A stretch of 64,000 bases of DNA from Escherichia coli (GTDB lineage Bacteria > Pseudomonadota > Gammaproteobacteria > Enterobacterales > Enterobacteriaceae), in assembly GCF_003334255.1 (NCBI RefSeq), contig NZ_QOWU01000019.1, one strand, 5' to 3'. This document shows positions 14,952-15,671 of the stretch, one piece after another. Both the position numbers and the translations under genes were made by a program. Positions within the stretch are counted from its first letter, which is position 1. Every line of letters begins with the position of its first letter. The notes beneath the pieces are model-generated. The model was given only the letters and a program-made list of their open reading frames with translations. It had not been told where the DNA came from and searched no databases.

Positions 14952-15146
14952 TTATTTGTCTTCATTGCATTCTAAGAAGTGTTTCTTATCAGACCTGATT
15001 TTTTTGCCATTATTTTTAATGAGGTCTTCAAGTGGAAAATAGGTTAGGCGTTCATGTGGCAGCGCGGCACGTCCCCATTTAGTGGCAAACTCCCGTTGGC
15101 GTGCCTGTAACAGTTGCTCCAGCCTTTTTATTTTGTTCTCATTCAT
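14952..15146 (-). CDS. Hypothetical small protein (64 aa), member of a tandem array of three related small ORFs
   Basis: ORF with charged, coiled-coil-like sequence (KIKRLEQLLQARQREF); third of three co-oriented small ORFs. Confidence 0.3.
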   Translation of the reverse strand: MNENKIKRLEQLLQARQREFATKWGRAALPHERLTYFPLEDLIKNNGKKIRSDKKHFLECNEDK

Positions 15147-15199
15147 CCGGTTTTCCTCGTATGCTGCATCACACCACTGTGCTAATGAAAAATGTAATC

Positions 15200-15377
15200 A
15201 GTGTGGTGGACGTGTTTTATCCGCATTGGAATTGTCGTCAACTAAAGGAGATGAGGCCCGTTTGTATCGCAATGGGTCTATGGCGCTCATGCCCGTTTGC
15301 TGTTCGATAATGGCTTCTCTGAGCATACGGTGTTGCAGTTCTCGTAAAAACTTTGCGTCTTCTGGTGATAAATCCAT
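15200..15377 (-). CDS. Hypothetical small protein (59 aa), tandem paralog
   Basis: Manually translated (below the ORF-track length cutoff): MDLSPEDAKFLRELQHRMLREAIIEQQTGMSAIDPLRYKRASSPLVDDNSNADKTRPPH; its C-terminal codons (…KTRPP-stop) are near-identical in nucleotide sequence to those of the ORF at 15474-15671. Confidence 0.3.
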
Positions 15378-15473
15378 TGTTATTACTCGTAAAGCAATGC
15401 GCTGTAGTGCCTTACGCTACCGCGCTGATGGTTCTTATCCGTTTTATTGAATCGGAGAACAAACTGTGAGCTA

Positions 15474-15671
15474 TCAGCCTGGTGGTCTGGTTTTGCCTGA
15501 TTTAAGCCGCCGTGGGTATTTGTCCAAGAATGCTTCAAGCTCCAATCGTTTTGGCCTGGTGAATGGAGATGGGTTAAGCAAAGACTCTCGTTGCTGGTGT
15601 ACTTTTTCGCGCTGGCGCTCAAGTATGGATAATGCGATTGCCTGTAGTTCTTCGTTAGTCATTGTCTGCAC
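15474..15671 (-). CDS. Hypothetical small protein (65 aa), tandem paralog
   Basis: ORF ending …KSGKTRPPG; shares C-terminal nucleotide/protein similarity with the 15200-15377 ORF. Confidence 0.3.
   Translation of the reverse strand: MQTMTNEELQAIALSILERQREKVHQQRESLLNPSPFTRPKRLELEAFLDKYPRRLKSGKTRPPG

Follow-up and report, generated by a model that had tools for sequence, protein, structure and literature searches.

Are three consecutive open reading frames (ORFs) of about sixty codons each, found side by side on the minus strand of an Escherichia coli contig (NZ_QOWU01000019.1), genuine genes, and if so, where do they come from and what might they do? Within the whole 64,000-nucleotide stretch of DNA that was analysed (the window), these frames, here named A, B and C, lie at 14952-15146, 15198-15377 and 15474-15662, respectively. 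From sequence comparisons, we consider it likely that they are genuine small protein-coding genes of one uncharacterised family, stranded in a 1.1-kb remnant of a phage-inducible chromosomal island (PICI) within an island that carries iha.

The sequence confirms that the three ORFs are co-oriented and lie where the initial annotation had placed them. ORF A encodes 64 aa, ORF B 59 aa and ORF C 62 aa from the ATG that RefSeq uses as its start; an alternative GTG at 15671 would extend C to 65 aa (15474-15671). The gaps between A and B and between B and C are 51 nt and 96 nt. The quoted terminal codons were also found, AAA ACC AGA CCA CCA GGC TGA in C and AAA ACA CGT CCA CCA CAC TGA in B, so that the proteins end in ...GKTRPPG and ...DKTRPPH, respectively; the protein of ORF A ends in ...ECNEDK, with neither RPPG nor RPPH. 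Shine-Dalgarno-like sequences precede the ATG codons of C (AGGTG, 6 nt ahead) and A (GAGGA, 7 nt ahead). Overlooked at first was that the start codons at 15146, 15377 and 15662 all fall in one reading frame. Pairwise, the three proteins show no significant similarity to one another (shuffle p = 0.10-0.95), and a DNA self-comparison of the array found no long direct repeats among A, B and C; the only DNA similarity between units lies in the leaders that precede them.

The origin of the array became apparent from blastn comparison with intact PICI loci. Positions 15872-15169 of the window are collinear with 4516-5209 of one such locus, L014 (79.7% identity), and positions 15170-14730 are collinear with 5904-6364 of the same locus (73.8% identity). 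The array of L014 comprises, in order, a C-like unit (58 aa), a B-like unit (59 aa), a 75-aa unit, a 77-aa unit and an A-like unit (77 aa), the last of which, at 5928-6161, is the orthologue of A; 694 bp of L014 with the two middle units are missing from the window. Tandem duplication in place, which the initial annotation had suggested from the nearly identical ends of B and C, is not supported, as the similarity between units is confined to their leaders and the C-B-...-A order was inherited from the island. By these alignments, 14730-15872 is a 1.1-kb relic of an E. coli PICI that was inherited as a block, without local duplication. The relic corresponds to the so-called Bro or immunity zone of such islands, and its homology to PICIs stops at ~14730 and at ~15872, the latter just ahead of where the C4/Icd immunity module begins. 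Remnants of insertion sequences (IS) cut it on both sides: a frameshifted IS3-family (DDE) transposase pseudogene (~14293-14657, minus strand) and an IS66 TnpA pseudogene (~15960-16198, minus strand), both as annotated by RefSeq in a 100% identical locus. The decayed IS3-type remnant and AT-rich setting that had been described at first are thus borne out, the G+C content being 43% across 14730-15872 and 49.8% in the window as a whole.

The identical locus (L001, in which coordinate + 6399 equals the window coordinate) belongs to an E. coli strain of sequence type 69 (ST69), and there the ORFs lie inside an iha / fbpABC / uhpC pathogenicity island. In the window, PICI-matching DNA is limited to 14730-15872, and its neighbours are the IS pseudogenes, iha and fbpABC. 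Of 5,426 complete E. coli genomes, 672 share a 761-bp segment containing the array, with 97.9-100% identity; O157:H7 EDL933 and strains of O145 and O111 are among them. This distribution indicates that the segment spread together with its host island.

More divergent copies occur in complete islands, which adjoin tRNA or housekeeping genes and encode integrase, AlpA, (AntA), the small ORFs, Ash/Icd, small genes, a D5 or DUF927 primase, SSB, ProQ and PerC. This gene set is that of E. coli PICIs of the EcCIMP1 / EcCICFT073 type (PMC11773190; PMC6092414). In the intact islands, all other genes share one strand and the small ORFs occupy the other, between antA/alpA and a C4 (P4 CI-type) immunity RNA followed by an Icd-like gene, and the number of units ranges from one (L002) through three (L008 and L011) and four (L004) to five (L014). 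Orthologues of C are 73-97% identical to it and always 62 aa long; those of A and B are 80-100% and 84-100% identical, respectively, and B orthologues are present in the intact PICIs L011, L013 and L014. When 5.8 billion proteins were searched with a word index, only E. coli and Shigella yielded homologues of the three ORFs.

Although islands with A, B and C homologues have the gene content of Gram-negative PICIs, the window differs in holding only a 1.1-kb piece devoid of life-cycle genes. Of the features by which a functional Gram-negative PICI is recognised, it has no int, alpA, primase/replication module or att sites, and genes for the immunity RNA, a ribbon-helix-helix (RHH) protein and icd are likewise absent. 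The P4/P1-type RNA immunity module (a C4 or isrK/seqA-like RNA, then an Icd-like ORF) is present in intact relatives and missing here; searches of 13500-16500 with the C4 (RF01695) and isrK/seqA-like RNA models gave no match even at E <= 1. Because int, alpA, the RHH gene, C4, icd and the primase gene are all absent and the long frame that runs opposite the array in intact islands is broken (see below), the array can be regarded as an orphaned relic, in line with one of the possibilities that the initial annotation had raised. With none of their partners left at this location, A, B and C are most likely orphaned.

The relationship among the three ORFs, not evident from pairwise comparison, emerged when units were aligned across islands. 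The units follow a common plan: a charged N-terminal helix (e.g., ...ALSILERQREK...), a proline-containing linker, a nearly universal motif F-A-L-E-[D/x]-F-[L/V], and a basic tail, often KYPRRLKxxKxRPPG. We therefore coined the name FALEDF...RPPG for the family, the motif criterion being F-A-L-E-x-F-[LVIM] about 20 residues from the C-terminus. The corresponding segments of C (LELEAFL) and A (FPLEDLI) both sit in the aligned motif columns. With profiles from which a protein's own orthologues had been left out, C scored 15.5 bits, a score equalled by none of 2000 shuffled sequences, and A scored 14.9 bits, equalled by one of 2000, so that p <= 0.0005 for both. Thus, A, the last unit of the array, with a divergent tail, and C, the first, appear by profile comparison to be members of a small uncharacterised family that is apparently PICI-specific.

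ORF B lacks the FALEDF motif but its N-terminal helix and KTRPPH tail align with the family. The link is strengthened by a 92-aa relative, P0053, in which a B-type N-terminus is joined to KKFALEEFLRKYPRRLKATKNRPPG, including a FALEEF motif and a KNRPPG tail; the cluster of this protein includes one from E. coli ED1a. On the strength of the family-type N-terminus, the RPPH end and this bridging sequence, we tentatively connect B with the family and suggest that the B type lost, or never had, the central motif. The relatedness of the ORFs proposed from their shared ends is upheld in the sense that they appear to be paralogues of one family, in which the RPPG/H end is a trait common to many members (K-x-RPPG) though not universal, being found in C and B and not in A. 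A widespread database variant of B (P0030, in at least 1000 contigs) has 57 aa, two residues fewer, with ...HRMLSIIEQQ... replacing ...HRMLREAIIEQQ..., an in-frame change that would keep both the B frame and the frame antisense to it. Frameshifted variants are known for A (P0022, P0024, P0025) and C (P0005, P0006, P0011).

Searches with the small proteins, which the initial annotation had recommended, identified no known family. A scan of 1.84 billion representative proteins with a hidden Markov model of the family retrieved only 22 members (E <= 1e-3); every one that was looked up is annotated as a hypothetical protein, and the source is E. coli or, in a few cases, Shigella or Salmonella. Searches of Pfam, NCBIfam and PADLOC with A, B and C gave nothing usable, and a profile search of the PDB returned no match for the family. 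One subfamily (57-67 aa, of the MTN[EK]EST... type) corresponds to phrog_21027 (E = 1.8e-14), which carries no annotation; A, B and C themselves match no PHROG family, phrog_21027 included, and no family member turned up in 50,697 phage records when two of them served as tblastn queries. An AlphaFold2 model of the ORF C protein, computed with the family alignment, has a helix at residues 3-29 with a predicted local distance difference test score (pLDDT) above 90, a second, short helix at the motif (41-48) and a basic tail that is disordered; the mean pLDDT is 80.8 and the predicted template modelling score is 0.38. Foldseek found no match to this model, which is non-globular, so that the fold comparison says little.

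Which strand is coding required closer attention, because the array lies opposite a second, much longer open frame. In intact islands, an ORF on the operon strand begins at, or overlaps, the stop codon of antA or alpA, runs antisense through the array, continues across the isrK/c4-a1b1 and C4 antisense RNAs (Rfam, 69-78 bits) and ends in an NCBIfam Icd-like domain. Its length is 343 aa in L002, 596 in L004, 605 in L008, 534 in L011 and 852 in L014, and the longest examples (534-852 aa) lie at L014 4085-6643 (minus strand), L004 5064-6854, L008 5331-7148 and L011 4025-5629; within the 852-codon ORF of L014 lies the C4 RNA gene (78 bits), and the last part of this ORF is an Icd-like domain. Across 60 other loci, the frame that overlaps the leaders is open for 204-856 codons, although a few of these stretches end at a contig end, compared with 106 codons in the window and 206 in the other relic copy, L016. 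The open antisense phase is the one in which third codon positions coincide with those of the small ORFs: it is free of stops in 52 of 53 unique leader-associated ORFs, whereas 241 and 96 stops fall in the two remaining antisense phases and synonymous codon shuffling predicts ~0.49 stops per gene in the open phase. In addition, 67 of 72 consecutive unit pairs share a frame, where one third would be expected. These statistics are independent of how the loci were chosen. The open frame on the opposite strand thus explains why A, B and C share a frame.

Because third codon positions coincide, simple periodicity cannot decide between the strands, and we turned to substitution patterns. For unit C, the Nei-Gojobori ratio of nonsynonymous to synonymous substitution rates (dN/dS) amounts to 0.16-0.38 when the small-ORF frame is read, compared with 0.26-0.70 for the open frame antisense to it and values of ~1 or more for the remaining frames. 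We also counted sites as for overlapping genes over 126 orthologous pairs, which are related to one another and were pooled, so that the statistics overstate independence: in the FALEDF genes, transversions that change only the small protein occur at 0.46 of the doubly synonymous rate and those that change only the antisense product at 1.39, and transitions of the two kinds were seen at 0 of 630 and 4 of 406 sites, respectively. The codons of the FALEDF motif vary synonymously (TTT/TTC, GCC/GCG/GCA/GCT, CTT/CTG/TTG, GAA/GAG), and the antisense peptide there varies freely. RHH genes, a family with members elsewhere, share the strand and frame of the small ORFs. Together, these comparisons show that selection is stronger on the small-ORF frame than on the opposite one. 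As the long frame runs through the C4 and isrK RNA genes, its openness does not imply a functional protein.

Several observations weigh against the interpretation of A, B and C as selected genes of one family with a regulatory role. (i) ORF B is not significant as a family member by profile alone: it lacks the motif and scored 1.9 bits when its own orthologues were left out, which 153 of 2000 shuffles matched. (ii) For B, dN/dS is 0.18-0.33 in the small-ORF frame and 0.20-0.38 in the antisense frame, so the two are indistinguishable, and A is weakly constrained (0.43-0.78), with differences spread evenly over codon positions. (iii) The RHH genes also show apparent constraint on the antisense frame (0.40), and the pooled counts carry the limit stated above. 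(iv) In the EDL933 genome, RefSeq calls a 90-aa ORF on the plus strand over C (L065 3027-3299, plus strand, equal to 1110674-1110946). (v) A consensus scan found no sigma-70 promoter upstream of C within the window. (vi) Both the function of the proteins and the role of the long frame in antitermination, as proposed below, are argued from analogy.

The conserved leaders provide a further signature of the units and connect them to probable partner genes. Most units are preceded by a leader of ~60 nt, ...ATCAGCGCCGTGGYGTGAGGWACTNCGGCGCATTGCTTTACAGG-N7-9-ATG, that ends ~25 nt ahead of the start codon. A scan of IMG/VR with the core leader pattern retrieved 48 DNA stretches, mostly PICI-sized contigs, and nhmmer identified 92 leaders in 63 loci. 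The leader contains a hairpin with six outer G-C pairs and a loop that measures 13-15 nt from the sequence alone and would shrink to 5 nt should the weakly supported inner pairs form; among 21 distinct leaders, 86.6% of cells are paired. Four pairs changed on both sides and 3 of 500 shuffles reached the covariation score, but as the pattern used on IMG/VR fixed the outer stem, covariation is informed only by the inner positions and by 15 leaders found through proteins, a limitation that also counts against our interpretation. Given this selection and the strong overall conservation of the leader sequence, we regard the evidence for the hairpin as moderate. Many pairs are G-U on the small-ORF strand, and the L011 leader RNA folds at -18.8 kcal/mol on that strand versus -12.6 on the other.

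In the window, B has a full leader (15375-15438, minus strand) with the hairpin GCGCGGT-N13-ACAGCGC at 15399-15425, a pattern match for which 0 are expected by chance; it scores 59.4 bits with nhmmer and folds at -16.2 kcal/mol (z = -1.96). The leader of C (15660-15718, minus strand; 37.2 bits) is degenerate: it aligns with the leaders of L002 and L014 and retains the loop and downstream part, but its 5' arm has decayed and it folds no better than shuffled sequences. The leader of A (15147-15197, minus strand) is a hybrid that holds the junction at ~15169/15170 between the two collinear blastn blocks; by eye, its 5' part resembles the leader of the 75-aa unit of L014 and its 3' part that of the A-like unit.

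In 40 of 61 leader-associated units, the leader starts right after the stop codon of an RHH gene, which is either YlcI/YnfO-like (NCBIfam 59.7 bits, cut-off 30) or Arc-like. RHH types and FALEDF types are freely combined across islands, which suggests that the leader is a recombination point at which units have been exchanged. Nine loci (L018, L025, L045, L052, L053, L055, L057, L061 and L064) have two RHH-leader-FALEDF modules per island, and the RHH tail ...RRQRRKAKESE is conserved along with the leader. The loop, e.g., in L011 5183-5246 (plus strand), shows GAGG(T/A), and a second AGG(T/A) ~25 nt downstream is the Shine-Dalgarno sequence. Both sites read GGA in many leaders, and the pair resembles the two-site layout bound by CsrA; a protein of the CsrA or ProQ type might bind the GAGG/GGA loop. 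Two other roles for the hairpin were considered and dropped: that of an intrinsic terminator, given the loop size and the lack of a T-run after it, and that of a target for C4 RNA, as the loop is nearly constant while the C4 loops differ among L002, L004 and L008; the Rfam c4-a1b1 model gave no match on the leaders.

Two alternative explanations deny that the small ORFs are separate genes. In one, they are non-coding shadows of the real gene, a long Bro/Ash-type ORF on the plus strand that is disrupted in the window. This would fit the frames of 204-856 codons that are open on that strand in every non-relic locus examined, the occasional annotation of the opposite strand by gene callers and RefSeq, the equal dN/dS of B in the two frames, and some periodicity in both frames, as coinciding third positions would produce. 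We nevertheless find it unlikely: over the array the long ORF is rich in Cys, Ser and Arg and matches no family, and the PHROG and NCBIfam matches of such ORFs all lie in the C-terminal Icd/Ash part. The near-synonymous rate of changes that affect only the long frame (1.39), the depletion of those that affect only the small proteins, the conservation of the motif despite synonymous codon variation, the placement of RHH genes in the same frame as the small ORFs and the passage of the long ORF across C4 and isrK RNA genes all argue in the same direction. In the other, stop codons have split a single larger minus-strand gene into the three ORFs, a condition that the initial annotation had itself named as a possible refutation. 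Their shared frame is what this would predict, but it is explained by the open frame opposite. A separate Shine-Dalgarno-like sequence and ATG mark every unit, and most units, B and C among them, also have a leader of their own; the C-type orthologues of L002, L004 and L007 all keep two consecutive stops, TGA-TAG, after RPPG; islands with a single unit exist (L002); and units of different subfamilies are freely combined. A single disrupted gene on the ORF strand is therefore extremely improbable, whereas on the opposite strand the notion holds in part, since the ORFs do overlap a broken long frame.

Two further alternatives accept translation of the small ORFs but assign them another role. The ORFs could act through translation itself, as leader or arrest peptides in which stalling at Pro-Pro-Gly-stop controls the downstream leader hairpin or antisense transcription into antA/alpA. 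PPG is a stalling motif dependent on elongation factor P, conservation is concentrated in the last ~25 residues with RPPG-stop in many members and variable N-terminal parts, and a conserved hairpin follows each unit. However, the most conserved element is the FALEDF helix rather than the tail, A and several subfamilies have no RPPG, the N-terminal helix, for which the predicted pLDDT exceeds 90, is maintained within subfamilies, and the leader has neither a T-run nor a terminator- or attenuator-like alternative structure; we give this explanation a low probability, on a par with that of non-coding shadows. Even less probable, by a clear step, is that the RHH and FALEDF proteins form a type II toxin-antitoxin-like pair of which the window retains only the toxin copies. 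The order of RHH and then small partner in 40 of 61 modules would suit such a pair, as would a VapB-type match of one RHH protein (E = 0.012), although that match is weak and far below cut-off. PADLOC, NCBIfam and Pfam yielded no toxin match, the modelled structure, a helix with a disordered tail, is non-globular, and arrays of 3-5 would-be toxins without RHH in intact islands, and in 672 genomes, are hard to square with toxicity. The window has neither an adjacent antitoxin, such as an RHH protein, nor a recognisable toxin fold. The antitoxin-like role floated in the initial annotation likewise finds no support, as the small proteins match nothing in PADLOC, NCBIfam or Pfam.

We return to the reading of A, B and C as orphaned genes of the FALEDF family and to what such genes may do in intact islands. 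They are probably small regulators of PICI quiescence. The array would be transcribed from a region that also holds the divergent promoter of the C4-icd-primase operon; the putative promoter region is conserved and corresponds to ~15672-15872 of the window. In the uninduced island, the FALEDF proteins would be co-expressed with the RHH protein, a repressor candidate, and could serve as trans-acting regulators or adaptors that act via the long N-terminal helix, the short amphipathic FALEDF helix and the basic tail, helping to hold the island quiescent or immune. The long frame may be kept open, by analogy with the eta ORF of phage P4, so that translating ribosomes let the induced operon transcript pass terminators. 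The amino-acid sequence of this frame across the array would then not be under selection, and the requirement for an open frame would account for the single phase of the small genes and their coinciding third codon positions.

Extending this idea, we tentatively propose, as a possibility that we hold to be more doubtful than the gene assignment itself, that the stretch from antA/alpA to C4 in intact PICIs is read on both strands. One strand would carry a counter-transcribed quiescence module of RHH and one to five FALEDF genes, with each FALEDF unit behind a hairpin leader at which units recombine; the other would carry an eta-like frame of several hundred codons that is only required to be translatable, for induced read-through. 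If true, the RHH/FALEDF module could be the repressor system reported missing from Gram-negative PICIs, and many database Bro/Ash proteins would be in part antisense read-through of small genes.

Remains of the eta-like frame can be traced in the window. Antisense to the array and with coinciding third codon positions, the broken frame extends over 15043..15768 (plus strand), with stops in this phase at 15040, 15448, 15769 and beyond. Neither B nor C contains a stop in that antisense frame; A contains one, at 15040, consistent with decay of a relic. The N-terminal domain of the eta-like ORF has left a remnant, shifted into another frame, at 14616..14822 (plus strand), where ...DAYDYMHHIVNDYATECMTHIK resembles ...HSDYMHHIVSHFAAERMKHVK of L002; at the DNA level, 14730-14870 matches L002 6283-6425. 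Inside the former frame and on the operon strand, a consensus scan located a terminator-like hairpin followed by a T-run at 15795-15825 (plus strand), with the sequence TGTGTTTTC-AAA-GAAAACACA, then GGTATTTTTC. It lies at a place that, in intact islands, falls between the array and the start of the isrK/C4 module, and it is conserved in L002, L014 and L016, with no covariation seen. This hairpin could be a terminator that is overridden by translation of the long frame.

Comparison with known systems indicates which parts of this arrangement have precedents. In P4, the long eta ORF is translationally coupled to an alpA homologue and extends across both the immunity promoter and the CI RNA gene; translation of eta prevents termination when the late promoter fires (PMC10111431). 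Matches to C4- and isrK-type RNAs in the Bro zones of PICIs have already been noted (PMC10111431). The PICI loci share the layout of the P4 immunity region (nested eta/kil ORFs, CI RNA, seqA/seqC), with C4 and isrK matches and a Kil/Icd-type end. The PICI frame differs from eta in being stretched up to 856 codons over 1-5 small genes on the opposite strand; to our knowledge, eta carries no antisense genes. The loci are also like immI of P1/P7 (c4 RNA - icd - ant) in having a C4 RNA and then an Icd-like ORF beside the antirepressor AntA, and like immI of P22 (arc, mnt, ant, sar) in having Arc-like RHH regulators in the same region, but we know of no FALEDF-type proteins or hairpin-leader array in either. 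The openness of both strands in an accessory region resembles that of the long antisense overlapping genes reported in enterohaemorrhagic E. coli; the difference is that here one frame is selected for its protein and the other apparently only to stay open.

Gram-negative PICIs have been described as unidirectionally transcribed and without a known repressor (PMC6092414), and a search of the literature available to us found no description of a counter-oriented RHH/FALEDF array, a hairpin leader or a dual-strand phase constraint in PICIs. The P4/P1-type RNA immunity module in the Bro zone was known; the RHH/FALEDF array, the hairpin leader and the phase constraint on both strands appear to be new. 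Three hypothetical ORFs can be explained as a PICI fragment carried by an iha/tellurite-type island, and the relic in turn points to an unannotated small-protein family, apparently PICI-specific, and to a candidate regulatory module, transcribed counter to the operon, in islands for which one-way transcription and no repressor have been reported. It also offers a natural case in which one strand is selected for protein and the other seemingly only for staying open.

Annotation is affected as well, as the strand chosen by RefSeq varies between genomes. For ST69 it lists A and C, both as minus-strand genes, and omits B. The counterpart there of the plus-strand EDL933 call is the 62-aa ORF C on the opposite strand (L001 9075-9263, minus strand), and B is annotated in neither genome. 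ORF calls labelled Phage_ASH overlap the C4 RNA gene, and part of the Ash/Bro protein sequence in databases may be non-coding or antisense read-through.

A few additional RNA elements were identified along the way. Tandem C4 RNA / Icd-like modules occur in L004 (4829-4916 and 5310-5397) and L008 (5096-5183 and 5577-5664), preceded in each case by isrK-like or a1b1-like elements. Between int and alpA of the L014 island lies a match to the Rfam int-alpA RNA (7788-7856, minus strand; 41.1 bits), and at L011 8445-8511 (minus strand), outside the island, there is a match to STnc480 (87.1 bits). In the window itself, the sole Rfam match in the vicinity of the array is to Esr41 (enterohaemorrhagic E. 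coli small RNA 41), whose model matches over its full length at 13476-13549 on the plus strand (103.4 bits, gathering score 102), in an AT-rich stretch with iha on one side and the IS3 remnant on the other.

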